Positions 17,101 to 39,411 are shown, counted from the first letter of the stretch. The stretch: 64,000 nucleotides of DNA from an uncultured Thermoleophilia bacterium (GCA_963791345.1 CAWBRS010000002.1:22707-86706), one strand, 5' to 3'. Notes: generated from the sequence alone by a model not told the origin. A program made the numbers and translations.

Positions 17101-17971
17101 GCCGCGTCGAGCGGCCCGCAGTCGAGCGTCCAGTCGTCGGTCGGCGTCGTGTGCAGCGAGAGACTGCAGGACGAGCGGTCGGCGGCGAGCTCGTAGCTGA
17201 AGTCGCCGACCGCGTCCGACTGGGTCATGGGGCCGTGGTTCCAGGGGTTGCTCGGCCACAGGGCGCCGTCGCGCAGAGCCCCGACGCCGCCTTCGCGCGA
17301 CACCTGGGAGGCGGGAGGGTAGAGGCCGTCGTGCCGCCGGGCCCACTCGATCACGTACTGGCGGATCAGCGAGAGCCCTTCCTGCTCGCGATGGCGGTAC
17401 GCCAGCCGGCCCGAGCCGGGCATCGAGCCCCTCACCTCGAACTCGCCGTCGGGCAGGTGGCCGACCAGGCGATAGCTCCGGCGGTCGGCCGCCACGGTGT
17501 AGGTGTAGCGGCCCGGAGATGTGCCGGGGCGCATGGCTTTGCCGGTCCACGGGTCCGCCGGCCAGAGCGGCGCGTGGAGCCCGCCGCTCTTGCGCACCAT
17601 GTCGGCCGCGGGGTAGCTGTAGTAGCGCTCCAGGGCGTAGGTCTCGATGTAGCCCTGCAGGAGCAGCAGGCGCTCCCGCATCGAGTCGCTCCTCGGTGAC
17701 GACGGCCGGCCTCGCCGAGGGGTCGAGGCTCGGCTCGGGCTCGCCGGACGGCCCGGCCGGTGCCTTCCGGGCTCGGCGCGGCGCTCCCGGCGGCGCCCGG
17801 CTCATCCCCGCCGCAGCCGCTCGCCGTCACGGCGATCAGCAGCCCGGCGACCAGCAGGAGGCCGGCGGCGAGGAGTCGTGCCCGGCGGCCCGCGCGCCGC
17901 GGCGCACCACGCGACGCGTCGCTCCTGCGCGGCGGCGCCAGACCTCGCCGGGCGGCCGTGCTGCGCTGCAT
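17079..17971 (-). CDS. Lipoprotein with two tandem pilin/GspG-like globular domains; frameshifted
   Basis: Lipobox ASGC; two repeats of YP...LWPxxPWxxxxM....G.Y.Y...AD. Confidence 0.6.
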
Positions 17972-18162
17972 GTGTCCCTCCCTCGGGCCCCGGGTCCGTG
18001 TCGTCGCGCAGTCTGCGACGGGCATCGCACGCGGTCAAGCCGGCCGCGCGCGGGCGGTTCGCGCCCGGGTCCGGGCGGGGCCCGTCGGCGTCGCCGTCCG
18101 GCCGTGGAGAGCCGCCCTTCCCTCGGGCGACGCCGGACACCACCGAGCGCCGTCGCCGCCGG

Positions 18163-18200
18163 CATGTCCAATTGCGCAGGATGATGTTCAATTGGGCATG
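18163..18200. promoter_or_regulatory. Inverted repeat (putative operator) upstream of mtbB
   Basis: CATGTCCAATTG-N14-CAATTGGGCATG, 11/12 complementary, AT-rich relative to surroundings. Confidence 0.55.
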
Positions 18201-18248
18201 ATCGCGCGACCCCCGGGTCGCACCCCCCGCGAGCGTGAGGTGACGCCG

Positions 18249-19635
18249 GTGGAGCCGAGGATCCCGACCCGCATGGGCGACGGGTTCATGGTCGAGAGGA
18301 CCCGTAGCGAGCTGCGCGCCGACATCGAGGCGGCGACGGCCGAGGCGGCGCGCAAGGCGAAGTGCCCGCCGCTCGCCGCCGGCGAGCTCGACCACCTGCT
18401 CGACATCTACGCCTCGCCCGCGTCGTTCACCGCCGTCGACATCGGCGACCAGGTCGTCCTCTCCTGCGACGGCGGCGGCAGCAAGATGACCGGCACCGAC
18501 CTCCAGGACCTCCTCGAGAGCGAGCAGCGCCTCGGCCAGGACATCCTCGAGCTCTGGCACATCGAGTACAGCTACAAGGCCATCAAGACGATCCTGCCGT
18601 TCCAGCAGCAGCTCATGCAGAACGCCCAACTCATGCTCACCGCGCCGATCCAGTACGGGGCGCAGCCCAACCTGGCCTTCTACTCGAAGCCCGACGGCCC
18701 TGCCGACAACTGGTTCGAGCTGCTGCCGCAGGGCCGCATCGCCGAAGCCAAGGCGGCCATCGAAGAGGCGATGGAGCACGCGACCAAGGACTTCATCTAC
18801 GTGAGCGACGGCATGATGGAGGCCGGCGCCGACGGCATGGACTTCGACACCACCGGCGGCGCCGGCGACGCCGACCTCTTCAGCACGCTGCGCGCGGTGA
18901 AGCACGTGCGCGAGAGGTGGCCGGAGGCGGGCATCGAGGTCGGCATGGCCGGCGAGTTCGTGATCGGCGTGCACGGCGAGCTCGCGTGGGAGGGCCGCCG
19001 GCTCGCCGGCATGTGGCCCAAGGACCAGCTCGAGGTCGCCCAGGACGCGGGGGCGACGCTCTTCGGCCCGGCGGTGAACATCCGCACCTCGAAGAGCTGC
19101 GCCTGGAACGCCGCCTTCTCCCTCACCGTGATGAAGCCGTGCATGGAGGCGGCGCGCATCCCCGTCCATCCCAACGTCGGGCAGGGCGTGTGCGGCGTGC
19201 CGGTCAACGGCTACCCCGGGGAGGACGCCTCGTCGCGGGCGGCCAAGGCCTGCGTCGAGATCCTGCGCTGCGACGGGTTGTAGGTGGGCTCGGGTGACTC
19301 CAGGGGCATGGACGTCACCCACGCGCTCGCCGCCGGCATGGGCGGGATCCGGACGGCCGGAGATCTGGTGGCCCGGATGCAGATGTCGCGGGGCATGCGC
19401 CTGAACGGAGGCGAAGGAGTACGTCGCGGGGAAGCTGGGCTGCGGGGTGCGCGACCTGAGCGACAGCTACGCCATGGAGCAGCTCAGGGGCGAGCTCGGT
19501 CTGGGGAGGATCCTCGACCACTCGAACCTGCACCCCGGCGAGCCGAACGCGATGTACGCCAAGTTCCGTATCGCCGAGCTGCTCGGGCTGCGCATCAACT
19601 CGGTCGAACGATTCAAGGACCTGGCCGGTCTCTGA
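18249..19635 (+). CDS. mtbB: Dimethylamine:corrinoid methyltransferase MtbB homolog with in-frame amber (pyrrolysine) codon at 19281-19283; +1 frameshift near 19408
   Basis: TRMGDG, YGAQPN..YSKPDGP, GADGMDFDTTGGAGDAD, GMAGEF, FGPAVN; DGL-(TAG)-VGSGD corresponds to MtbB DGI-Pyl-IGVGD; homology continues AGMGGIRTAGDLVARMQ...EAKEYVAGKLG...INSV. Confidence 0.9.
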
Positions 19636-19742
19636 CGATACAGGGTTCGGTGGGGCGGCCGGCGGCGGGGGCCACGGTCGCCCCGCCGATCAGCCGCGCA
19701 CCGCCGTTGCGGCGGGCGTGGGGTGGACTGACCGGAGGCCGG

Positions 19743-21995: not shown

Positions 21996-22034
21996 AAGGG
22001 CCGGGCGGTCCCCCGCGGGGACCGCCCGGCCCTT
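21996..22034. terminator. Bidirectional hairpin terminator between decarboxylase and htrA
   Basis: AAGGGCCGGGCGGTCCCC-CGC-GGGGACCGCCCGGCCCTT. Confidence 0.65.
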
Positions 22035-22085
22035 CGTCGCTGCTGGTCGCGGCGCTTCGTCCGCGCTCGCGTCCGTCGTCCGGGC

Positions 22086-23267
22086 TCAGTACGCCTGCGG
22101 CCTGACCTCGAGGGTGACGTTCACGTCGGTCGTCGCGCCGTCGCGCAGGACCGTCAGTGTGATCTCGTCGCCCGGCGACTTCTCGGAGATGGTACCGGCG
22201 AGCTCCTCCATGCTGGTCACGGCCTCACCGTCGATGGCGGTGATGATGTCGCCGCCGACCACGTAGGGCTGGCCCTGCACGCTGGTCTCACTGGTGCCGC
22301 CCTGCAGGCCCGCCTCGGCGGCGGGGCTGCCGTCCACGACCTCGGCCACCAGCACGCCCTCGCCCTCGATGCCGAGCGCGGCGGCGATGTCGGCGGTCAG
22401 GGTCTGGCCCTGGATGCCGAGCCAGGCGTACTCGACCTGGCCGCCGTCCTTGAGCTGCTCCATGACGCGGATCGCGGTGTTGATCGGGACGGCGAAGCCG
22501 AGACCCTGGTTGCCGCCGGACTCGGAGGCGATCTGCTCGTTGATGCCGATCACGTGGCCGGTCGCGTCGATGAGCGGGCCGCCGGAGTTGCCGGAGTTGA
22601 TGGCGGCGTCGGTCTGGATGCCGTTGGAGATGATGGAGCCGTTCGGCGACTGGAGCTCGCGGTCGAGGGCGGAGACGACACCCGTCGTCAGGGTGAAGTC
22701 GAAGCCCAGCGGGTTGCCGATCGCGACCACGGGCTCGCCGACGTTCAGCTCGTCGGAGTCGCCGAGCGGGATCACGGTCAGGTCGCCGACCTCGTCGGGG
22801 TCGATCTTGAGCAGGGCCACGTCGCTCGAGTCGTCGGCGCCGACGACCGTGGCCGTCACCTTGGTGCCCGCCGACTCCTCGTCCTTGAAGCTCACGGTCA
22901 CCGACTCGGCGGTCACGCCGCTCTCGCTGACCACGTGGGCGTTGGTCAGGATGTAGCCGTCCTCGGACACGACGAACCCCGTGCCGAGCGCCTGCTGCGA
23001 GCCGCTGCTGGGGCTGTACGGATCCATCGACGAGGCCGCGGAGAAGGTGGCGACGACCTCGACCACTCCCTGGGCGTAGGTGTCGTAGATCTCCTCGGGG
23101 GTCATGCCGGTGGTCGTCATCGAGACGGTGCTCGTCTGCGCCGGCTCGACCACGGTCTTCGTCACACTCTCCACGGGGACGAGCCCGGTCGCGAGCGCGA
23201 GCGTCATGCTGCCGACCGCGGCCACGATGCCGAGGGCGATGCTCGCTACGGCGGTACGCATCCTCAT
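22086..23267 (-). CDS. htrA: HtrA/DegP-family serine protease with PDZ domain
   Basis: LTNAHVV, SDVALLK, QTDAAINSGNSGGPL, PDZ with GSPAAEAGL; N-terminal TM. Confidence 0.92.
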   Translation of the reverse strand: MRMRTAVASIALGIVAAVGSMTLALATGLVPVESVTKTVVEPAQTSTVSMTTTGMTPEEIYDTYAQGVVEVVATFSAASSMDPYSPSSGSQQALGTGFVVSEDGYILTNAHVVSESGVTAESVTVSFKDEESAGTKVTATVVGADDSSDVALLKIDPDEVGDLTVIPLGDSDELNVGEPVVAIGNPLGFDFTLTTGVVSALDRELQSPNGSIISNGIQTDAAINSGNSGGPLIDATGHVIGINEQIASESGGNQGLGFAVPINTAIRVMEQLKDGGQVEYAWLGIQGQTLTADIAAALGIEGEGVLVAEVVDGSPAAEAGLQGGTSETSVQGQPYVVGGDIITAIDGEAVTSMEELAGTISEKSPGDEITLTVLRDGATTDVNVTLEVRPQAY

Positions 23268-23574
23268 CGTCTGTCACCTTCCTTGGTCCTGGGGACCGCT
23301 GCTGGGGGCGCCGGGCCGGCGGCCGCGAGGGGGGCGCGCCCGCCGGCCCGGCTGGGGGCCGTCTTCGTTGTGTGTGAGTCAGTTGTAGCCGCCCGGGTTG
23401 TGGTGGACCTGAATGGATGCTGGGAACTTCCTGTGAGTCCGCGGGCTCTGCGGCACCTCTGCGAAACGCCGGTCGATGACGGCATATGCAGACCGCAGAA
23501 GTCCGCCGAGGCGTCACGTCGTACCCGGCCAGACAACGCCTCAGTGCAGGGTTTCCTACTTCCACGCCGCCCGC

Positions 23575-23646
23575 GGTGCTATCCTCGTAGCCTGAAAGGG
23601 CCGGCAGTGTGAAGGACTCTCCCACACTGCAGACTACTTGTTAGAG
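23575..23646 (+). promoter_or_regulatory. Putative cassette promoter and attI-like entry site of the cassette array
   Basis: TATCCT -10-like hexamer at 23580; GCAGTGTG/CACACTGC hairpin; core GTTAGAGC at 23640 complementary to GCTCTAAC ending cassette 1. Confidence 0.4.
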
Positions 23647-23665
23647 CCAGCAGGCAGGAGCGCAG

Positions 23666-24084
23666 GTGCACGGCGCAGAGCAGACGGCCAGTCCGCCCGT
23701 GCGTCTGCACTCACGCTCGGCCGCGTCGTCGTCGTGCTCCCTCTCGCGTTCGGCATCTACGGCGCACCTGTCCGGTCTGGCGTGCGCTACTCGCGCGCGC
23801 CGGACCAGGACACCCTCTTCTACGTGGCTCGGTGCCGCGGTCGACCTGGCGCCGCTCCTCCTCTACGCCTTCGCCGCGTTCCTCGTGCTCACCGGTCGCC
23901 GCCCTCTCGCCGGCTGGACGCTCCTCTTCGTCTCGTGGCGTCGTCCTCAGCGCGATCGCCGCCTACTACCTCTGGCAGTACCGCGACTGGGGCAGCGCTC
24001 ATGGCTGTACCGCCCTACCTGACCGCGCTCGCGCTCGTGGAGCTCCTGCGTGGGCGCAGGCCGGTGGTCACAGCCTCCGGCTGA
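23666..24084 (+). CDS. Cassette 1: hypothetical membrane protein (frameshifted)
   Basis: AGGAG RBS; several hydrophobic segments distributed over frames. Confidence 0.45.
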
Positions 24085-24100
24085 TCATGGCGTTGAGCAG

Positions 24101-24190
24101 CTCTAACCAGCGCATCGAGCTGATTGGCCCGCAGCGTAAGATGAGGCGCAACGCGCAGCGAGCCAACAGCTCATGCGCACCACGTTGATG
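24101..24190 (+). repeat. attC site 1
   Basis: CTCTAAC-CAGCGC-ATCGAGCTG...CAGCTCAT-GCGCACCAC-GTTGATG; R''/L''/L'/R' layout with extrahelical base. Confidence 0.8.
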
Positions 24191-24399
24191 CGCAAGCAGG
24201 GGCGCATCGGCGGCATGTCGACCGTACGTCGCCGTCACGGCGGCGGCAACTCGACCACCACGCAGGTTGCCGACCCCCGTGGCCGCCGCCGGTCGCGACG
24301 CTCGCCCTGGCCCGTGACTTCGCCATCGTCATCCAGTCCCGCTGCGTGCAGTCCGGGCTCAGGGCTCCGTGCGTCCACGGGCGACGCTACGCCGCGTTG

Positions 24400-24493
24400 C
24401 CATAACCAGCGCGTCAGACCTGACTCGCAGACGGCCAGGCGTCGAGATACCTCCAGCGCAGACCGCTCGCAGGTTATGCACACCACGTTGTAC
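24400..24493 (+). repeat. attC site 2
   Basis: CCATAAC-CAGCGC...ACCTG...CAGGTTATGCACACCAC-GTTGTAC. Confidence 0.7.
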
Positions 24494-24517
24494 GGAACAG
24501 AACCTCGGCGGATCGGG

Positions 24518-25189
24518 GTGGCGACCGTGGACTACCAGGGCTCGCTCGAACTCGTAGAGCTCGACGCTCGCGGGAATGCTCGTGTCGCTGACTGTCTGTC
24601 GGACGGCAAGACGCTGGCGCAGCGGCTGGCGACCGAACTCCCCATCGCTGACGGCACGGTCTACGCCGTGGTCGGGCCCGGCGTTTCCGAAGACCACCTG
24701 TACCACTTCAAGTGGGGCGGCGTCGTACCCCAGATCCCGCCGGATCAGTCGGGCTGGCAGGAGGTCGTGACCGCCGGCGCGGTCTTTGCCCGGGCGGTCG
24801 CCGCGAGACTCCGCGACCTTTGTGGCACTCTCGTCGTACAGGACTGGCACGTCACGTCCTCGCATCCCGGTCTCGCGATTCGGGGGCACGAGCCCTGGCT
24901 CTTTGGCGAGGAGGTCTACTTCGTCAGCCGAGACAGCACTGTCGATGAGGCAGAGCATCTCCTCGCGATGGGCGACCTCTGGCCGGGACTCACCGCCCTC
25001 GTGGCGGAGGTCGATCTCCCCGCAGCACTTCGCCAGTCGGCTCACGAGATCGAGCCGTCGCTCCTCGATGAGCTGGTGGGTGGCGCGCGGGAGCTCATCA
25101 TCGGCGCCTACGACGGCGAGAGCTTCCTCTTGTGGGCGAGAGACTCGCACGCGGTGGAGTTCTACCGGTCGGCAATGGTGGCCGAGTAG
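24518..25189 (+). CDS. Cassette 3: hypothetical protein
   Basis: Intact ORF between attC2 and attC3; ends LIIGAYDGESFLLW. Confidence 0.6.
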   Translation: MATVDYQGSLELVELDARGNARVADCLSDGKTLAQRLATELPIADGTVYAVVGPGVSEDHLYHFKWGGVVPQIPPDQSGWQEVVTAGAVFARAVAARLRDLCGTLVVQDWHVTSSHPGLAIRGHEPWLFGEEVYFVSRDSTVDEAEHLLAMGDLWPGLTALVAEVDLPAALRQSAHEIEPSLLDELVGGARELIIGAYDGESFLLWARDSHAVEFYRSAMVAE

Positions 25190-25201
25190 CGTGCCCTGTC
25201 C

Positions 25202-25288
25202 GTCCAACCAGTGCATCAACCTGACGCGCCCACGCGCCGAGATATCCTTCAACGGCGCGGCGCGCAGGTTATGCACGCCACGTTAGGC
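25202..25288 (+). repeat. attC site 3
   Basis: GTCCAAC-CAGTGCATCAACCTG...CAGGTTATGCAC-GCCAC-GTTAGGC. Confidence 0.85.
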
Positions 25289-25316
25289 GCAAAGACGTGA
25301 CACCGACCGGGGGTCC

Positions 25317-25760
25317 ATGGTGAGCACGCGTATCGTCTCTCTTCCACTCGTTCTCCTCGCCGCCGCGCTCGCCGCCGCCTCTCTCCTGGGCGGCTGCGGC
25401 GATGAGGCGACCGCGGGCGAGGGAGCCGAAGCGTCGTCGTCACCGGCGCCCGCCTGGCTCGCTTCAGAGGCGGCGGCGCAGGCGGAGCGTCTCGGCGATC
25501 CTGCGCCGGAGGCCGCCTTCTGGCGCTACGACCCCACCCACGACAGCTACACCATCGTGCTCATCGGCGAGTTCGACACGGCTCACTCTATCCGCGACGG
25601 CGCCCTCCTCAGCCCTAGCGGGGCATCCGAGATCACCGTCGAGCCGAGCCGCTGGGTGCTGTTCACCTACAGTGGCCCGCACGCGGTCGAGGTGTTCGGC
25701 TGCGGGCCCCGTGAGTCCGACGGCCTGGCCCTTCCGGGCCTCCAGCCTCTCGATCTGTGA
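25317..25760 (+). CDS. Cassette 4: hypothetical lipoprotein
   Basis: Signal peptide with lipobox LLGGC. Confidence 0.65.
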   Translation: MVSTRIVSLPLVLLAAALAAASLLGGCGDEATAGEGAEASSSPAPAWLASEAAAQAERLGDPAPEAAFWRYDPTHDSYTIVLIGEFDTAHSIRDGALLSPSGASEITVEPSRWVLFTYSGPHAVEVFGCGPRESDGLALPGLQPLDL

Positions 25761-25819
25761 GCGGGCGTAGGTTTGAGGCGCTGCGCCTAACAAGCGCATC
25801 TTAGTGTCACTCTTCCCGC

Positions 25820-26010
25820 GGGATGCCTGACCAGAGTCAGGTAGCCTCGGCCCCGACGGCGGAGTGACCCAAAGCGCATCTGTCGCCCTTTCGGGCTGAC
25901 CGTCTGCTCTTCTGTCCCCCGCCGCCGGGAGCCGAGGGGTCGCCGACGTGACCTGATAGGAGCCTGGCCAAGAGGCCCCAGCTAAGGCGTGTCCGCCGGC
26001 GGTCCCCGCT
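25820..26010 (+). ncRNA. Predicted bridge RNA of the IS110 element
   Basis: 5' hairpin plus two internal loops; guides AAGCGCAT (25872-79) and GTCTGCTCT (25902-10) match attC; ATAGGAGC (25956-63) and CTAAG (25982-86) match element ends. Confidence 0.75.
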
Positions 26011-26039
26011 CGCACCGGTCGCAGCCGAGCAAGGGGGAC

Positions 26040-27090
26040 ATGCAGGTGATCGTAATCGGGATCGACCCGCACATGAAGAGCCACACCGCCGTGGCGCTCG
26101 ACGCCGCCAGCGGTCGCAGCCTCGGGCAGACGATCATCGCCAGCGACGCCGCCGGCTGCGCGGCGCTGATCGCCTGGGCGCGCCGCCTCGGAGATGAGCG
26201 CTGCTTCGCCATCGAGGACTGCCGCCACGTCTCCGGTCGCCTCGAGCGTCACCTGCTGCCCCACGGCGAGCGCCTCGTGCGCGTGCCGCCCAAGCTGATG
26301 GCCAAGGCGCGCGCCTCGGCGCGCACCTACGGCAAGTCGGACCCGATCGACGCCGAGTGCGTGGCCCGCGCGGCGCTGCGCGCAGCCGCACCTGCCCGAG
26401 GCGCGCCTCGCCGGACCCGAGGCCGACGTGCGCCTGCTCGCCGACCACCGCGACGACCTCGTCGGCGAGCGCCAGCGCGCTGCAGACTGCGCCTGCGCTG
26501 GCACCTCCACGACCTCGAGCTCGACCTCGCGCTGCCGCCGCGGGCGCTCGACCGCTACGTCTGGCTCGATCGCGTCGAGGCGTCCCTGCGCGCCCTGCCC
26601 GCGGGCACGCGCGTCCGCATCGCCCTCGAGCTCGTCGGCCGCTGCCGCGAGCTGACCCGCGAGGTGCGCGCCCTCGAGCGCGAGATCGGCGCGCTCATGC
26701 GCGCCCTCGCCCCCGAGCTGCTCGCGCTGCCCGGCTGCTCGGCGCTCTAGCGCGCGCAGCTCGTCGGTCAGGTGGCCGGCGCCGCGCGCTTCCGAAGCGA
26801 GGCCGCCTTCGCCATGCACACGGGCACCGCCCCGCTGCGCGGTCTCCTCGGGCAAGTCGCAGCGCCACCGCCTCAACCGCTGCGGCAACCGGCGCCTCAA
26901 CTCGGTCATCCACATGATCGCCGTGACGCAGGCGCGCATGCACCCGCCGGCGATCGCCTACCTGGCGCGCAAGCGCGCCCAGGGCATGAGCACGCGCGAG
27001 GCGCTGCGCTGCCTCAAGCGGCACATCGCGCGGACCGTGTTCAGGACCATGCGCCGGGCGGAGCTGGGCCGGCTGGCGGTATGCTGTTGA
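26040..27090 (+). CDS. IS110-family transposase/recombinase (frameshifts and one internal stop)
   Basis: IGIDPHMKSHTAV, AIED, GKSDPIDA (DEDD RuvC-like); HTGTAP..SSG..RHRLNRCGNRRLN; ALRCLKRH. Confidence 0.9.
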
Positions 27091-27207
27091 CATAGGAGCA
27101 AGAGCTGATTGGCCCGGGGCGTAAGATGACGCCGGAAGCGCAGCGAGCCAACAGCTCACGCGCACCACGTTCGGTGGGACGGCTGCATGGTCACGAGCGA
27201 GGATGTG

Positions 27208-28164
27208 ATGGCTCAACAGACAACAATGAAAGCGGTTGCGTGCCCCAAGTACGGGCCGCCGGAGGTGCTCAGACTCGTCGAAGTCCCTGTTCCGTCACCG
27301 ACGCCTGAACAGGTTCGGATTCGAATCCACGCGGCCGGCGTAACGATGAGCGACATCTTCATCCGCTCGGCGCGCGTCACTCCGCTGCTCCAAATCCCGT
27401 TTCGACTCATGATGGGAATCACGAAGCCGCGCGCGCCGGTCGTTGGCTTTGTATTCTCTGGCGTGATCGAACAGATCGGTGCGAGAATCACCCGCTTCAA
27501 ACTCGGTGACGAGGTCTTCTGCACGACCGGCTTCTCGCTCGGCGCGTATGCGGAGTACCGCTGCATGGCGGAAACCGACTCGAGGAACCATGGCTGTTTG
27601 GCGCTCAAGCCCCACAACCTCACCCACGAGGAAGCGACTGCGGCAGCGTATGGTGGATTGCTCGCCCTGCAGTACAGCGACAAGGGCAGCATAGAAGCGG
27701 GTGACGAAGTCCTGATCTACGGCGCCTCCGGTACGTCAGGTACGATCGCTGTTCAATACGCCAAGCACCTGGGTGCGCGCGTCACCGGCGTGTGTGGCCC
27801 TCACAACGTCGATCTCGTCAGATCACTCGGCGCCGACGAGATCATCGACTACACCAAGAGCGATGCCCCGCCCTCGGGCGCGCACTATGATTTCGTGCTG
27901 GACTCGGTCGGCGGTGTGAAGTCCTCTCCACTCAAGAAGGCCGTCAGAAGAGCTCTCAAACCGGGCGGCTCGTACGTCTCGATCGACGACGGCGACATGC
28001 TACTGGAGTCCGCGCGCTTGGATCAGATTCGTGAGCTCGTTGAGAGCAAGGCGATCACGCCGGTCCTCGGTCACACGTTCCCCATCGAGGAGATCGTCGA
28101 AGCGCACCGGTTGGTTGAATCCGGTCACAAACGCGGGGGTGTGGCAGTCACGATCGCGGGGTAG
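27208..28164 (+). CDS. Cassette 5: NAD(P)-dependent medium-chain dehydrogenase/reductase (quinone-reductase-like)
   Basis: YGPPEVL, GAYAEY, VLIYGASGTSG, LGADEIIDY, GHKRGGV; atypical lower-GC codon usage. Confidence 0.88.
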   Translation: MAQQTTMKAVACPKYGPPEVLRLVEVPVPSPTPEQVRIRIHAAGVTMSDIFIRSARVTPLLQIPFRLMMGITKPRAPVVGFVFSGVIEQIGARITRFKLGDEVFCTTGFSLGAYAEYRCMAETDSRNHGCLALKPHNLTHEEATAAAYGGLLALQYSDKGSIEAGDEVLIYGASGTSGTIAVQYAKHLGARVTGVCGPHNVDLVRSLGADEIIDYTKSDAPPSGAHYDFVLDSVGGVKSSPLKKAVRRALKPGGSYVSIDDGDMLLESARLDQIRELVESKAITPVLGHTFPIEEIVEAHRLVESGHKRGGVAVTIAG

Positions 28165-28242
28165 CTGCGTGAAACCACAGGCTCACCATCTCAATGACAA
28201 GTCACGCGAACGCGCCAGCCCCATGCCGACGGTGGAGGCCAC

Positions 28243-28332
28243 ACCGAACAAGTGCATCGAGCAGACCGGCGCCGAAGGTATGCTGAGCTCCGCCGGCTGC
28301 GAGGCCGGCAGCTCATGCACATCACGTTCGCC
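28243..28332 (+). repeat. attC site 5
   Basis: ACCGAAC-AAGTGCATCGAGCAG...CAGCTCATGCAC-ATCAC-GTTCGCC. Confidence 0.8.
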
Positions 28333-28346
28333 ACAACCCTGCGCAC

Positions 28347-28386
28347 TTGACATCCAGCGCCCCGACACGTACGCTTTGCTGTACGT
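28347..28386 (+). promoter_or_regulatory. TA promoter with autoregulatory palindrome
   Basis: TTGACA-N17-TACGCT; ACGTACG-N6-TGTACGT overlapping the -10. Confidence 0.7.
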
Positions 28387-28401
28387 ACTGGGAGGTCCGC
28401 G

Positions 28402-28644
28402 ATGACGACCATCAGCGCCACCGAGGCACGCAGACACCTCTACCAGCTCCTCGACGACGTGGCACGCTCGCACGAGCCGGTGCAGATCACCGGCAAGCGC
28501 GGCAACGCCGTGCTCGTCTCAGAGGACGACTGGCGTGCCGTGCAGGAGACGCTCTACCTCGTCTCGATCCCCGGTATGCGTGAGTCCATCCTCGAGGGCA
28601 TGGCGACGCCCGCCGCTGAGCTCGAAGACGAGCTCGACTGGTGA
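28402..28644 (+). CDS. yefM: Phd/YefM antitoxin
   Basis: ATEARRHLYQLLD, PVQITGKRGNAVLVSE, ETLYL. Confidence 0.92.
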   Translation: MTTISATEARRHLYQLLDDVARSHEPVQITGKRGNAVLVSEDDWRAVQETLYLVSIPGMRESILEGMATPAAELEDELDW

Positions 28645-28904
28645 GCTGGCGGCTGCTCTACACGAAGCAGGCGCGCAAGGACGCGAGGAAGCTCGCCGCG
28701 GCGGGTCTCAAGCCCAAGGCGCAGGAGCTGCTTGCGATCCTCGAGGCCGATCCGTTCCAATCGCCGCCGCCGTTCGAGAAGCTCGTCGGCGACCTCAGCG
28801 GCGCCTACTCGCGGCGCATCAACATCCAGCATCGCCTCGTGTATCAGGTAGTCGTCGACGAGCGTATCGTCAAGGTGCTCAGGATGTGGACCCATTACGG
28901 GTGA
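28641..28904 (+). CDS. yoeB: Txe/YoeB toxin
   Basis: FEKLVGDLSGAYSRRINIQHRLVY, RMWTHY; GTGA overlap with antitoxin. Confidence 0.92.
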   Translation: MSWRLLYTKQARKDARKLAAAGLKPKAQELLAILEADPFQSPPPFEKLVGDLSGAYSRRINIQHRLVYQVVVDERIVKVLRMWTHYG

Positions 28905-28907
28905 GGC

Positions 28908-29279
28908 TGAGTTCAAGTTCGAACCGCAACACCTGCGCTTCTGACGCTCTCTCCTACCGGGCTTGTACATAGCACTCCTCCGGGGTCCTGTAGCCCAAGC
29001 GTTTCCGCGGTCGTGTGTTGAGCTTCGCCGCGATCGCGTCGCAGTCGGCCTGGGTGACGTGGGCCATGCTCCGGCGTTTGGGCAGGTACTGGCGCAGGAG
29101 GCCGTTCGTGTTCTCGTACGTGCCCCGCTCCCAGGCGTGGTGCGGGGTCGCGAAGTAGAACAGCGTCCCGGTCTCGGCCTCGATCTCGGCGTAGCTGTGG
29201 AACTCGGAGCCGTTGTCGGCGGTCACGGTGGCCACGCGCCCCAGGTGGCGGTGTGAGTTCAAGTTCGAAGTGCAACACC
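28908..29279 (-). mobile_element. IS30-family remnant (3' transposase fragment between two direct copies of a terminal sequence)
   Basis: TVTADNGSEF, FATPHHAWERGTYENTNGLLRQYLPK, LNTRPRKRLGYRTP; 26-bp direct repeats at 28908 and 29254. Confidence 0.85.
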
Positions 29280-29304
29280 GGCGCCCCCGTCGCGCCTCCG
29301 TGTC

Positions 29305-30681
29305 TCAGGCGCCGATCAGCTTCTTGATCAGGTCGGCGCGGCGCGTCGGGCGACCCTTCGACTCCTCGCTCTTGTCGGCGCTGGCCATCATCTGCAGGGC
29401 GAGGTTGATGCCGAGCCAGCGCAGGGGCTCGGGCTCCCAGAGGGGCGACTTGTGGCCGACCCAGGGCAGCGCGGTGAGCTCCGTGGTGGCGCCGGTGATG
29501 AGGTCGCGCAGCGTGCGCCCGGCGAGGTTGGTCGTCGACACGCCGTCGCCCACGTAGCCGCCGGCCCAGGCCATGCCCGCGGCGCGGTCGAGGCCGACCG
29601 AGCCGTACCAGTCGCGCGGCACGCCGATGGCTCCGCCCCAGCGGTGGGTGACACGGAAGTCGCCGACCTGCGGGAAGAGGGTGTGGATCAGGCGGCGCAG
29701 GTGCTCGTGCACGGCGTCGTTCACGATGTAGCCCTCGTCGAGCTTGGAGTCGTAGTGGTAGGGCGCCCCGCGGCCGCCGATGGCGATGCGGCCGTCCTCG
29801 GTGTGGCAGGCGTAGAAGATCAGGTGGCGCATGTCGCCGAAGACCTCGTGCTTCTTCCACCCGAGGCGCTCCCAGGTCTCGTCGGAGAGCGGCTCGGTCG
29901 CGATCATCAGCGAGTAGAGCGGCACGAGCTGGCGCTCGTAGCCGGGGAGCTCGGGGGTGAAGGCCTCGGTCGCGCGCACGACGACCTCGGCCTTGACCGT
30001 GCCGAACGGCGTCTCGGCGGCGTGCGGGGCGAGGGCGGTGACCGGCGTGCGCTCGTAGATCGGCACGCCGAGCTTCTCGACGACGTCGGCGAGGCCGCGG
30101 GCCAGGCGCGCCGGGTCGACGGCGGCGCCGTGCGTGCAGAGCACGGCGCCGAGGCAGCCGGCGACCTTGAGGCGCTCGCGCGTCTCGGCGGCGCCGAGCA
30201 TGACGTAGTCGTCCTCGCCGAAGCTCCAGGAGCGCTGGTACTCGAGCTCCTGGGCGAGGCGCAGCAGCTGCACGGGGTTGTTCGCGAGGTCGAGCTGGCC
30301 GTCGAGGTGGAAGCGGGCGTCGATCTGCTCGTCGGCGACGACGCGCTCGATCTCGTAGACGGTGTCGAAGAGGGCGCGCTGCTGGGCGACGACCGCGTCG
30401 CGCCCGTGGGTCTTGGCGGCGCGCTCGCGCGAGCCGGGGAAGGTGGTGTGGCACCAGCCGCCGTTGCGCCCCGAGCCTCCGTAGCCGGCGATCTCGCGCT
30501 CGAGGACGCAGACGCGCAGCTTGGGGTCGGCCTTCTTCAGGTAGTAGGCCGTCCAGAGGCCGGTGTAGCCGGCGCCGACGATGGCGACGTCGACCTCGGC
30601 GGCGCCGGGCAGGGAGGGCCGCGGGGTGAGCTCGCCGGGGACGCCGTCGAGCCACAGGCTGCGGGAGCGGTAGTCGGTCAC
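29305..30681 (-). CDS. FAD-dependent oxidoreductase (DAO family, PuuB/OrdL-like amine oxidase)
   Basis: VGAGYTGLWTA, GGSGRNGG, WGGAIGVPRD, GYVGDGVS, WEPEPLRW. Confidence 0.85.
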   Translation of the reverse strand: MTDYRSRSLWLDGVPGELTPRPSLPGAAEVDVAIVGAGYTGLWTAYYLKKADPKLRVCVLEREIAGYGGSGRNGGWCHTTFPGSRERAAKTHGRDAVVAQQRALFDTVYEIERVVADEQIDARFHLDGQLDLANNPVQLLRLAQELEYQRSWSFGEDDYVMLGAAETRERLKVAGCLGAVLCTHGAAVDPARLARGLADVVEKLGVPIYERTPVTALAPHAAETPFGTVKAEVVVRATEAFTPELPGYERQLVPLYSLMIATEPLSDETWERLGWKKHEVFGDMRHLIFYACHTEDGRIAIGGRGAPYHYDSKLDEGYIVNDAVHEHLRRLIHTLFPQVGDFRVTHRWGGAIGVPRDWYGSVGLDRAAGMAWAGGYVGDGVSTTNLAGRTLRDLITGATTELTALPWVGHKSPLWEPEPLRWLGINLALQMMASADKSEESKGRPTRRADLIKKLIGA

Positions 30682-36899: not shown

Positions 36900-37886
36900 C
36901 TACGCGAGCCTGCGGTCCGGAGGCAGCTTCCGCTGGTACAGCAGGTACTCGTGGGCGACGTGCATGCCGGCGCGCTCGTACACCTTGAGGGCGCGCGTCG
37001 CGGCGTCGGCGTCGACGCCGAGCTCGACCCGCGCCTGACCACGCGCCAGGAGGGCGGCGAAGACGTGCGACAGCAGCGCACCGCCGACGCCTCGCCGGCG
37101 CCAGGGGCGCAGCACCCCGAGTCCCTTGACCCAGCCGAGGTCGCCGTGGTCGTAGGCGATGATCCCGCCGACGGCCTGCTCGCCGGTCTGATCTCCGGCT
37201 CCGGCGGCAGCCCAGGCGAGGGACCAGAGCCCCGGGTCGAAGTCGGGGTGGTCGACGAGTCGCCGGCGCCAGGCCTCGAAGGGCTCCTCGCTCTGGCGGA
37301 AGTGGTCGGCGAAGGACTCGTTCATCACGTCGCGCATGGTGCGCTCGTCAGAGCCCGGGCGGAAGGGCCGGATCTCGACGCCGTCGGGAGCCTCGAGGCG
37401 CGGCGTCGCCGCGCCGAGGTCGGCGGCCATGCGCAGCACGCGGCGCCGCAGCGCGTAGCCGCCCCCCTCGAGGAGGTGGCGTTTCGCCGCGTTGCCGCCG
37501 AAGGCGAAGATCGAGAGCCGCGGCTCGGGGTACGCGCGTTCGGCGGCGAGCTCCGCGGCGCGCCGCTCGACGAGGTCGAGCAGGCGGCGCGCCAGCCCCG
37601 CCTCGCCGCCCTCCGGGTGCACGAACACGTCGCCCTCGAGCTCGCCGGTGCGGAACTGGTCGCCGGCGTAGGCGTAGCCCGTCGGCACTCCGTCGGGGCC
37701 GACGGCGAGCCACGCGTCGCGGGCGAGGTCGAAACCGGCCTCGCCCCAGTCGCTCTCGAGGTCCTCGGCCGTGCTGTCGGGGTGGCCGATCTCGGCTACG
37801 TCGATCGTGTTCAGCAGGTCGACGACCTCGGGCAGGTCGCCGCGCGTGGGCGCACGGACGTCACTGGGCGGAGCTCCTGCAGACAT
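36900..37886 (-). CDS. Tandem GNAT-family acetyltransferase
   Basis: VHPE..EAGLARRLL; LGVLRPWRRRGVGGALL; ALKVYERAGM. Confidence 0.8.
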   Translation of the reverse strand: MSAGAPPSDVRAPTRGDLPEVVDLLNTIDVAEIGHPDSTAEDLESDWGEAGFDLARDAWLAVGPDGVPTGYAYAGDQFRTGELEGDVFVHPEGGEAGLARRLLDLVERRAAELAAERAYPEPRLSIFAFGGNAAKRHLLEGGGYALRRRVLRMAADLGAATPRLEAPDGVEIRPFRPGSDERTMRDVMNESFADHFRQSEEPFEAWRRRLVDHPDFDPGLWSLAWAAAGAGDQTGEQAVGGIIAYDHGDLGWVKGLGVLRPWRRRGVGGALLSHVFAALLARGQARVELGVDADAATRALKVYERAGMHVAHEYLLYQRKLPPDRRLA

Positions 37887-37912
37887 CGCTGGATCGGTCT
37901 CAGCGCGGCGGC

Positions 37913-39215
37913 TCAGAACGTCGAGCCCCTCGAGCCGTGCGAAGATCACCTCGCGACCGGCGCGGTACTGCTCGGGGTCCATCGCGGCGTCGACCTCTTC
38001 GGGGCTCAGCACGGCCATGGCCTCGGCGTTCTCCTTGATCAGGCCGCCGAAGTCGACGCCCTCGCGCCAGGCGCGCATCGCCGAGTCCTGCACGACGCGG
38101 TAGGCGTCCTCGCGCGACATCCCCTTGTCGACGAGGGCGAGCAGGACCGACCCGCTGAAGACGAGACGCTGCGACTGACCCAGGTTCGCGAGCATGCGGT
38201 CGGTGTCGACGACGAGGCGGTCGAACATCGTCGTGCTCTTCTGCAGCATGTAGTCGAGGAGGATGCAGCTGTCGGGGAGGACGATGCGCTCGGCCGAGCT
38301 GTGGCTGATGTCGCGCTCGTGCCAGAGGGCGACGTTCTCGAGGCCGACCATGGCGTTGCCGCGCAGCACGCGGGCGCAGCCCGCCATGCGCTCGCTGAGG
38401 ATCGGGTTGCGCTTGTGGGGCATGGCCGAGGAGCCCTTCTGGCCCTTGCCGAACGCCTCCTCGGCCTCGCGCACCTCGGTGCGCTGCAGGTGTCGGACCT
38501 CGAGAGCGAACTTCTCGAGGCTCGCGCCGATGACCGCGAGGCAGCTCAGGAAGCAGGCGTGGCGGTCGCGCTGCACGACCTGGTTCGAGATCGGCTCGAA
38601 GCCGATGCCGAGCTCGGCGCAGACGAGCTCCTCGACGCGCGGGTCGATCGCGTTGTAGGCGCCGACGGCGCCGCTCAGCTTGCCGACGGCGGCGTTCTCG
38701 GTGACGCGGCGGAGGCGTTCGAGGTGGCGTGCCACCTCGAACGCCCACATCCCGAGCTTCATCCCGAAGGTGATCGGCTCGGCGTGGATGCCGTGCGTGC
38801 GCCCGACCTGGACCGCGTCCTTGAATTCGAAGGCGCGCCGCTTGAGGACCTCGCCGAGGGCGAGGAGGTCCTTCTCGAGCAGCGCGCCGGCGCTCTTGAT
38901 CTGCAGGGCCAGGCCGGTGTCGAGCATGTCGCTCGAGGTCATGCCGTAGTGGACCCACTTGGAGGCCTCGCCGACGTGCTCGGCGACGTTGGTGAGGAAG
39001 GCGATGACGTCGTGGTTCGTCGTCGCCTCGATCTCGGCCACGCGCTCGACCTCGAAGGCCGCTTTGGCCTCGATCTCGACGACCGCGTCGTCCGGCACCT
39101 TGCCCAGCGTGTTCCAGGCCTTCACGGCGGCGATCTCGACCTCGAGCCAGGCCTGCATCTTGGCCTCTTCGGTCCAGACGGCGCCCATCTCGGGCAGGGT
39201 GTAGCGCTCGATCAT
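37913..39215 (-). CDS. purB: Adenylosuccinate lyase
   Basis: MIERYT, HYGMTSSD, GRTHGIHAEP, GSSAMPHKRNP, HERDISHSSAER; runs in-frame into GNAT in this assembly. Confidence 0.95.
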
Positions 39216-39411
39216 CGTCCCCTCCGGTGCGACGGCGTTGACGGCACGCAGGGTCACGCGAGGTGTGCGGCGATTCTCTCACAGAGACCCGCGCCGCGGG
39301 GCGCCGCGCGGCGACCGGCCGCGTGTCGCGCGGCCGCGGCCGGCGTGCGGGCGCGTCCCCGCGTTCGGTGGGGGTAGGATGCCGCCGATGGCTGTCGCGA
39401 GAGGAGGCGGG

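Follow-up and report, generated by a model that had tools for sequence, protein, structure and literature searches.

A predicted integron cassette array beside htrA in an uncultured actinobacterium

The wider core consensus of the integron recombination site attC is RYYYAAC/GTTRRRY. Clusters of attC sites lacking an integrase (CALINs) are defined with a limit of a few kilobases on the distance to the integrase, and Treponema denticola provides an example of the inverted-integrase type of integron. Here we describe a 5.9-kb stretch of DNA between an htrA-like gene and a flavin adenine dinucleotide (FAD) oxidoreductase gene, located in a 64,000-nt window; the window is the whole stretch of DNA that we analysed, and all coordinates refer to it unless a contig is named. 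We put the probability at about 0.9 that positions 23470-28907 represent a genuine integron cassette array, which would form one arm of a chromosomal integron.

Several described systems come close to this locus. In the parts of the sources considered here, three unpaired features of the folded bottom strand define an attC site (PMC5027507), and the inverted-integrase layout has already been described (PMC13323075). Likewise, CALINs can be mobilized in trans by a functional IntI and, in Xanthomonas, the integrase was later lost or displaced in some lineages, with CALINs at conserved positions (the relevant passages of PMC12444791). As to the host phylum, the portions concerned report no complete integron in Actinobacteria in surveys of complete genomes (IntegronFinder 2.0, PMC9024848), describe Actinomycetota metagenome-assembled genomes (MAGs) as virtually without integrons (PMC13323075) and count Actinobacteriota among the phyla in which integrons have been detected (a review, PMC8618304). 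Our search of the literature on integrons in Coriobacteriia or Actinomycetota MAGs, outside which lay subscription journals and supplements, found no description of the integrons of this lineage.

The genome under study (G000) is a MAG of 3.1 Mb in 21 contigs and is 77% complete; G001-G022 are relatives, and counts over these related genomes are not independent of each other. We observed the architecture of the sites, the cassette boundaries, an intI gene elsewhere in the genome, the homology of an attI-like site and the turnover of cassettes at its junction.

attC sites and cassette boundaries

The array comprises an attI-like site followed by six co-oriented cassettes, five of which end in an attC site (Table 1). 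The original prediction, made from the sequence of the window, had named five AAC...GTT repeats. All five lay where it had placed them and all have the AAC and GTT frame, but attC4 was found to be split by a 1301-bp element of the IS110 family of insertion sequences (IS), which the prediction had missed. Two proposed sub-families, attC1/4/5 and attC2/3, were visible in alignments, but attC5 was only 61% identical to attC1.

We analysed pairing and covariation in 38 attC sites from G000 and three relatives. AAC was present in 35-37 of these and GTT in all 38, and the wider consensus was matched only loosely. The unpaired spacer that separates the main stem from the AAC/GTT pairs measured 2 nt versus 5 nt. 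Two top-strand bases bulged out 6 bp apart, a C in 37 of the 38 sites and an A in 31, which correspond to G and T on the bottom strand. When individual bottom strands were folded, attC3 had both T and G bulged, 6 bp apart, attC1 had the T bulge and attC5 had the G bulge. In the stem, 95.4% of cells were paired and 12 of 20 pairs showed changes on both sides, a result reached by none of 500 shuffles; the alignment had been fitted to the model, which favours the structure. Sliding the partner as a control lowered pairing to 18-39%. Folding energies of attC1 (z -3.15) and attC3 (z -4.92) beat all 200 shuffles, and those of attC2 (z -1.00) and attC5 (z -1.51) were no better than shuffles. The predicted attC-like hairpins were therefore borne out by covariation, but by energy at only two of the four intact sites. 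Top and bottom strands of the sites folded about equally.

A covariance model of attC (R1) was built from eight sites on the same contig, four from the window and four from a second array. Searching the 3.1-Mb genome with R1 produced 26 matches at E<=1, which fell into four clusters except for one stray (E 0.75). The matches were strongly asymmetric between strands, with 52-103 bits on the top strand versus 14-26 bits on the reverse strand. Among the intact window sites, attC2 was the weakest.

The boundaries of the cassettes carried a footprint of capture. We scored the complementarity of each cassette start to an end core over the 6 nt beyond AAC/GTT in 31 cassettes from five arrays. Starts matched the end of their own cassette at a mean of 5.0 of 6 positions (17 perfect) versus 2.74 of 6 for the adjacent cassette (1 perfect; n=31 each), as the original prediction had proposed from the window alone; it had also singled out cassette 2 as weak, and that cassette indeed reached only 2/6. 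The sole perfect match to an adjacent cassette stems from a duplicated cassette, and several of the low own-cassette values occur where an IS or an undetected site lies between two matches. In cassette 4, the start AGGCGC was fully complementary (6/6, read by eye) to its own R'' extension, GCGCCT. If cassettes enter as circles that cross over at G|TT, a cassette start should pair with its own R'', not that of its neighbour.

These results bear on whether the repeats belong to an integron at all. Some other intergenic palindrome, repetitive extragenic palindrome (REP)-like or terminator-like, could have spread between genes; the folding energies of attC2 and attC5, which do not stand apart from shuffles, would fit this, as would a scan of 22000-30000 against Rfam in E-value mode that gave zero matches, in a database that may hold no attC model. 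REP-type repeats, however, predict no preference of a start for its own end over the neighbour's end, nor would they explain the strict strand asymmetry or the GTT boundaries that the array has in common with the attI beside intI in relatives. The repeats also co-occurred with the integrase: of the 24 other genomes of the host's family (f1) in a 40-genome sample, 16 had IntI over the cut-off and 20 had attC model matches, versus none for either among the 16 sampled genomes from other families of the class. We therefore regard a palindrome unrelated to integrons as very improbable.

attI-like sites, integrase and turnover beside htrA

The array begins at an attI-like site, which was absent from the original prediction. 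Its core is CTGCAGACTACTTGTT|AG, and the repeats ATGCAGACCGCAGAAG and GTCACGTCGTAC upstream of the core resemble repeats that relatives have after the stop codon of intI. In six relatives, a conserved stretch 3' of intI ends ...CTGCAKAATCMTTGTT|RG, and the window core aligned with the intI-proximal sites of G005, G003, G008, G022, G012 and G020. Judged by this alignment, the attI-like site is homologous to the integrase-proximal sites of relatives; binding by IntI is putative. With at most two mismatches from the consensus of the relatives, the core occurred at two places in the genome, C2:46333 (= window 23627) and C2:175476. Each of the two heads an array, and the core is identical to the base between them. 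Allowing three mismatches added one match in the genome, and the reversed-genome control gave one.

In G000, G004, G010 and G002, the first cassette begins at the GTT of the core. The htrA flank is common to G000, G004/G010 and G002 up to this GTT, after which the cassettes differ; G004 and G010 match the window flank at 88-90% identity as far as position 23642, and flanks are 88-94% identical between genomes with different first cassettes. The htrA locus held seven attC sites at E<=1 in G004 and five in G002. At the htrA locus of G009 we detected no attI and no attC match; an unrelated 1.06-kb segment lies there, and divergence sets in about 195 bp earlier. Gene order next to htrA is thus not fixed among relatives, in line with the original prediction. 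Metagenome contigs showed similar breaks. One from groundwater resembled window positions 23506-23642 and was then unlike it, and another resembled 27996-28330 and was then unlike it for about 1.5 kb; both breaks lay within 2 nt of predicted crossover points. Two metagenome contigs spanned 24485-25233 (cassette 3) with two differences each. We set aside joints between attC sites (for example, 24186 to 25206), the sides of which were 20-32 nt long and 90% alike and may come from other organisms or repeats.

The same junctions speak to the possibility of an assembly or binning artefact, in which an array of another organism was joined to an actinobacterial contig. The MAG is incomplete, and frameshifts are frequent in its lysS and IS transposase genes. 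lysS (L006 5656-7255) and the IS transposase (window 25989-27095) are each spread over two or three frames, which points to indel errors of assembly, not to true pseudogenes. Cassette 1 may carry a further such error, and pseudogene calls are unsafe because the MAG contains evident indel errors. Nevertheless, the array is embedded in a 211-kb contig with a uniform GC content of 72%, and the htrA-attI junction was assembled independently in G004, G010 and G002, which leaves an artefact scarcely credible.

We called IntI with the profile TIGR02249 (cut-off 265 bits), alongside 14 named control genomes. The contig of the window, C2, contained no IntI match over the cut-off; the only one in the genome was on C21. 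The original prediction had stated that no integrase accompanies the array and had placed it elsewhere, and both statements held. This single intact IntI, a 338-amino-acid open frame at G000:C21:642954-643895, scored 478.7 bits over model positions 1-314 of 315, and 0 of the 14 controls passed. Residues 28-336 align with residues 9-318 of PDB 2A3V (Vibrio cholerae IntI4) at E 3.8e-95. The regions of the catalytic motifs are identical or conserved between the two proteins, with GLRLMEC, GKGGK, HTLRHSFATHLL, LGH and IYTH aligned together with the integron-specific insert region. MAGs with various labels, among them Nitrospirales, Omnitrophota and Chloroflexia, encode IntIs that are 65-70% identical to this protein. 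When window positions 22000-24200, which include the interval from htrA to attI, were searched with tblastn for remains of intI, the best E-value was 0.43. Positions 23462-23490 had been considered as the last codons of intI on the basis of a resemblance seen by eye, which tblastn did not support.

Additional arrays were found in the genome. The second attI-headed array adjoins lysS at G000:C2:175391-181902 (L006 7392-13903) and has nine attC sites and a tenth broken by an IS110-type fragment. The gene order there is lysS-attI-cassettes in G000 and lysS-intI-attI-cassettes in G012, and lysS is 88.8% identical between the two genomes over 1.2 kb. Because G012 keeps lysS-intI-attI, the lysS locus looks ancestral, and intI would have been deleted or displaced from it in G000. 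At the intI-linked locus (G000:C21:632630-643895), a Phd/ParE-like pair follows the intI stop codon, and 11 diverged attC-like sites come next on the same strand. These scored 13-64 bits with R1, several of them with a mutated R''. Two more attC matches lie at C21:132312-132927, 500 kb from intI on the same contig.

Within the genus, 10 of 13 genomes had one to six attI cores each, versus none in a reversed-pattern control, and full-length IntI matches over the cut-off numbered at most one per genome. Attachment sites of this kind amount to two attI-headed arrays in G000, four in G012, where each of the four cores is followed on its own strand by attC or cassette matches, and up to six cores in G008. 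intI and the attC top strand were co-oriented in all 11 genomes that have both on one contig. At somewhat less than even odds, the integron of the genus may be a distributed system, in which one intI serves several attI-headed arrays scattered around the chromosome, each at a housekeeping-gene junction, and cassettes still move between them in trans. If this is true, no such arrangement has been described for an integron, and it would occur in a phylum that is regarded as free of them.

We propose that, as in the standard mechanism of integrons, IntI would bind the folded bottom strand of the attC site of a circular cassette together with double-stranded attI, that strand exchange at G|TT would put new cassettes first in the array, and that recombination between two attC sites would excise cassettes. 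The IntI encoded on C21 would act in trans on the two attI-headed arrays, and the promoterless-looking, co-oriented cassettes would each have been captured as a circle. IntI, the putative recombinase of these attC sites, co-occurs with them.

In addition to the fitted alignment and the folding energies of attC2 and attC5, several observations weigh against the reading of the locus as an integron array. The R'' of attC2 matched the start of its cassette at 2 of 6 positions, and attC4 and attC6 are broken. In the array linked to intI, which is decaying, the AAC of R'' is altered in about 5 of the 11 sites; the genome-wide core search found no attI core beside intI; and given this decay the integron system may be eroding. 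A scan of 23200-29400 for sigma-70-like promoters found 0 sites (0.4 in shuffles). A search of sequencing runs found none with at least half of the stretch (best share 0.17) and none from RNA. Finally, the first-cassette differences between relatives could have come from homologous exchange of whole arrays.

Many of these points would suit an inert relic, a true integron array in which recombination has ceased and which persists as chromosomal DNA held by its toxin-antitoxin (TA) pair. Such a relic would have acquired the IS in attC4 and the truncation of attC6, would tolerate a weak attC2 and a cassette 1 without a clean open reading frame (ORF), and would leave a decayed intI-linked array without an attI core; a passage of PMC12444791 describes a progressive loss of activity of this kind in Xanthomonas. 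On the other hand, intI is intact with a full-length frame, four of the five attC sites score 70-97 bits, the first cassettes differ exactly at G|TT between genomes whose flanks are 88-94% identical, and attI is identical to the base in both arrays. We consider a relic unlikely, if far from negligible. Three observations lead us to propose that recombination in trans continues today: intI is intact, the attC sites are in good condition, and close relatives differ by whole cassettes at an attI that lacks an integrase. We rate such activity at no more than about even odds, given the damage to attC4 and attC6 and the decay of the array linked to the integrase. A genuine cassette array, active or not, remains our preferred reading of the locus.

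Cassette contents, insertion sequences and neighbouring genes

The stretch has a GC content of 62-71%, below that of its flanks, and third-position GC (GC3) is 0.69-0.89 in the cassettes versus 0.96-0.99 in the flanking genes.

Table 1. Coordinates of the array and of its flanking features in the window
Feature	Position	Strand	attC site	R1 score (bits)	Own-end complementarity	Details
HtrA-like serine protease gene	22086-23267	-				Pfam Trypsin_2 3.6e-35 and PDZ_2; conserved left flank, outside the element
attI-like site	23470-23642	+				Core 23627-23644; crossover G|TT 23640-23642
Cassette 1	23641-24184	+	attC1 24101-24190	97.2	5/6	
Cassette 2	24185-24487 (303 bp)	+	attC2 24400-24493	70.6	2/6	
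Cassette 3	24488-25282	+	attC3 25202-25288	79.2	5/6	230-amino-acid protein 24497-25189
Cassette 4	25283-27169	+	attC4, split, 25785-25800 / 27102-27175	51.9	6/6	Lipobox (lipoprotein-like) ORF 25317-25760
IS110-type element in attC4	25801-27101 (1301 bp)	+				Pfam DEDD_Tnp_IS110 (PF01548) 5.5e-13
Cassette 5	27170-28326	+	attC5 28243-28332	85.7	5/6	MDR oxidoreductase 27187-28164
Cassette 6	28327-28907	+				Phd/YefM antitoxin 28402-28644 and Txe/YoeB toxin 28641-28904 (Pfam and NCBIfam)
Second IS remnant	28908-29304	-				rve_3 fragment 28954-29262; direct copies of the IS end 28908-28947 and 29254-29293
FAD oxidoreductase gene	29305-30681	-				Right flank

The contents listed in the original prediction largely agreed with ours: a lipoprotein-like protein, a medium-chain dehydrogenase/reductase (MDR), a protein without a family and a TA pair were all present, but a six-frame translation of cassette 2 gave no convincing ORF. 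The ORF of cassette 1 is ambiguous (23638-24084 or 23666-24022; GC3 0.69-0.76) and may be frameshifted in the assembly; its protein had no Pfam or NCBIfam match. A stretch 74% identical to cassette 1 occurs in the intI-linked array of G004 (C15:3588-3972), and one 77% identical to cassette 4 occurs at G009:C109. For the protein of cassette 3 we found no Pfam or NCBIfam family, and a search of the ESM Atlas returned hypothetical clusters only (score <=0.90, low recognition). The MDR of cassette 5 matched Pfam ADH_zinc_N_2, ADH_N and ADH_zinc_N, with a GC content of 61.7% and a GC3 of 0.75.

The predicted Phd/YefM-Txe/YoeB pair was confirmed, but it turned out to be a sixth cassette in its own right, the attC site of which has been cut off. 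Cassette 6 opens at the GTT of attC5, and its own attC is severed after the first bases of R'' (GGC at 28905-28907), where the window sequence stops at ...GAGGC. The TA cassette is 89% identical in G005 and G008, where ...GGGTGAGGCGAACAAGC... is followed by a short complete attC up to its GTT; the R'' in these genomes, GGCGAAC, is the complement of the start of window cassette 6, GTTCGCC. Copies of the cassette, 78-89% identical, also occur in other arrays of four relatives (G005, G008, G012 and G001), and their homology sets in at the GTT. The cassettes may be expressed, and the TA cassette may have a stabilizing role.

Two insertion sequences have broken the array. The first splits attC4, thereby fusing cassettes 4 and 5 into one unit. 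With the element removed by eye, attC4 aligned with attC1, the 3' 70 nt being 89% identical and the 5' half reading AACAAGCGCATC. The element has a DEDD transposase gene at about 26041-27090, frameshifted in the assembly, which scored 76.3 bits with the NCBIfam model of the IS110 family RNA-guided transposase, under the cut-off of 140. A 240-nt non-coding region (25801-26040) lies upstream of the transposase gene (tnp), and 11 nt follow the stop codon. Five full copies and one fragment from four genomes were examined (window 25801-27101; the fragment L006 13806-13903; L097, L101, L102 and L103), and all had the same insertion point, after AACAARCRCATC(G) and before GAGC/GAAC.

The 5' non-coding region of this element contains segments that match the flanks of its target: AAGCGCATC at 25872-25880 in the same sense, and TGCTC as a reverse complement. 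Both guide-like segments covary with the target in two copies of G012, as AAGCACATC and GTTC, and the G001 copy has guides of the G000 type in a target of the G012 type. The element looks like an attC-seeking bridge-RNA or seek-RNA element with the layout of IS110 rather than IS1111, as judged by these sequence matches. The side of tnp on which the non-coding region lies separates IS1111 (downstream, together with subterminal inverted repeats) from the IS110 layout, as set out in part of PMC11187229, and the window element does not have the downstream region of IS1111.

A second IS, represented by a remnant of about 400 bp, fills the gap to the conserved right flank that starts at 29305. Its end reads TGAGTTCAAGTTCGAA...GCAACACC and is accompanied by an rve-type integrase fragment. 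In G012 (C4; L102 from about 4983 onward), the second IS is inserted in the 3' end of an IS110-type copy. The window sequence of cassette 6 halts where the end of the second IS begins, so the array was truncated by IS activity, and removal of its attC by the second IS would have fixed the TA cassette in place.

Two observations concern other genes in the window. A dimethylamine methyltransferase-like gene at 17700-19700 (+) matched TIGR02368 with 270 bits over model positions 7-355 of 466 and stops at a TAG codon at 19281-19283. Pyrrolysine (Pyl) readthrough is plausible over about 50 residues (...CDGL-O-VGSGDS...), which makes this gene a candidate for encoding Pyl in an actinobacterium. At 36900-39278 (-), one stop-to-stop frame encodes an adenylosuccinate lyase (residues 22-446) and, after it, an MshD-like GNAT acetyltransferase region (residues 532-781); either the two are fused or an assembly error has merged separate genes.

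Host distribution and comparison with known systems

The host belongs to the phylum Actinomycetota, since its phylum group carries WhiB and, among the 14 controls, only Corynebacterium glutamicum does. WhiB was present in 33 of the 61 sampled genomes of this group (or 30 of 58 when the unpublished G046, G062 and G090 are left out), which agrees with the original suggestion of a probable actinobacterium; WhiB was found neither in G000 nor in its class. Its class is probably Coriobacteriia, the title borne by six MAGs among the 16 best named IntI relatives. A comparison of PurD did not discriminate between classes: identity was 47-52% to three Coriobacteriia-titled MAGs, a fourth had no full match, and a Chloroflexia MAG also reached 47%.

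In a sample of the class, IntI was found in 21 of 151 genomes: 16 of 25 in family f1, 3 of 25 in f4, 1 of 24 in f6 and none in the rest. An even sample of the phylum contained IntI in 24 of 401 genomes (about 6%; 22 of 399 once the unpublished G246 and G307 are removed), with families f15 (6 of 10) and f17 (7 of 21) standing out. The lineage-specific system put forward in the original prediction was supported in that the attC family and IntI occur family-wide, but this IntI is also 65-70% identical to those of MAGs with other taxonomic labels, and IntI is present in several other families of Actinomycetota. A whole family of uncultured Actinomycetota would thus have the full kit of IntI, attI and homogeneous attC sites. 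The question shifts from why Gram-positive bacteria lack integrons to which of them have integrons and how these function at high GC content, and the concrete attI, attC and IntI sequences are available for a recombination assay. The multiple attI sites per genome and the attC-homing IS110-type element offer handles on how arrays are built and broken.

The element is of a known kind in a little-described host lineage; the present analysis adds its integrase, its attI sites, the locus that looks ancestral and its distribution across the family. The window array resembles a CALIN in its five attC sites (at least two are needed), their single orientation and the absence of a nearby intI. It differs in being headed by an attI-type site homologous to the integrase-proximal sites of relatives, and is better described as an integron arm that has lost its integrase or never had one than as a detached fragment of an array.

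The IS110-type element in attC4 is like the IS1111-attC group (ISPst6, ISKpn4 and relatives) in its DEDD transposase and in having one fixed point and one orientation in attC, and differs from that group in that its non-coding region is upstream of tnp, which gives it an IS110 layout. The IntI aligns with VchIntIA/IntI4 of Vibrio cholerae (2A3V), including the integron-specific insert, whereas the host phylum differs, the attC sites are GC-rich and about 90 nt or about 65 nt long, and the activity of the IntI is putative.

Among chromosomal integrons, that of Xanthomonas, with intI by ilvD, shares an ancestral platform at a fixed housekeeping locus, here the lysS-intI-attI order of G012. Here, in difference from Xanthomonas, an intact intI survives elsewhere in the genome, and attI persists at the ancestral locus together with attC sites in good condition. 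Sedentary chromosomal integrons with an inverted integrase are alike in their homogeneous, lineage-wide attC sites, their chromosomal arrays and the co-orientation of intI with the attC top strand. The present system differs from them in its Actinomycetota host, its short arrays (5-12 sites), its several loci and its one to six attI cores. By definition the window array is a CALIN, and its anatomy is that of one arm of an inverted-type sedentary chromosomal integron.

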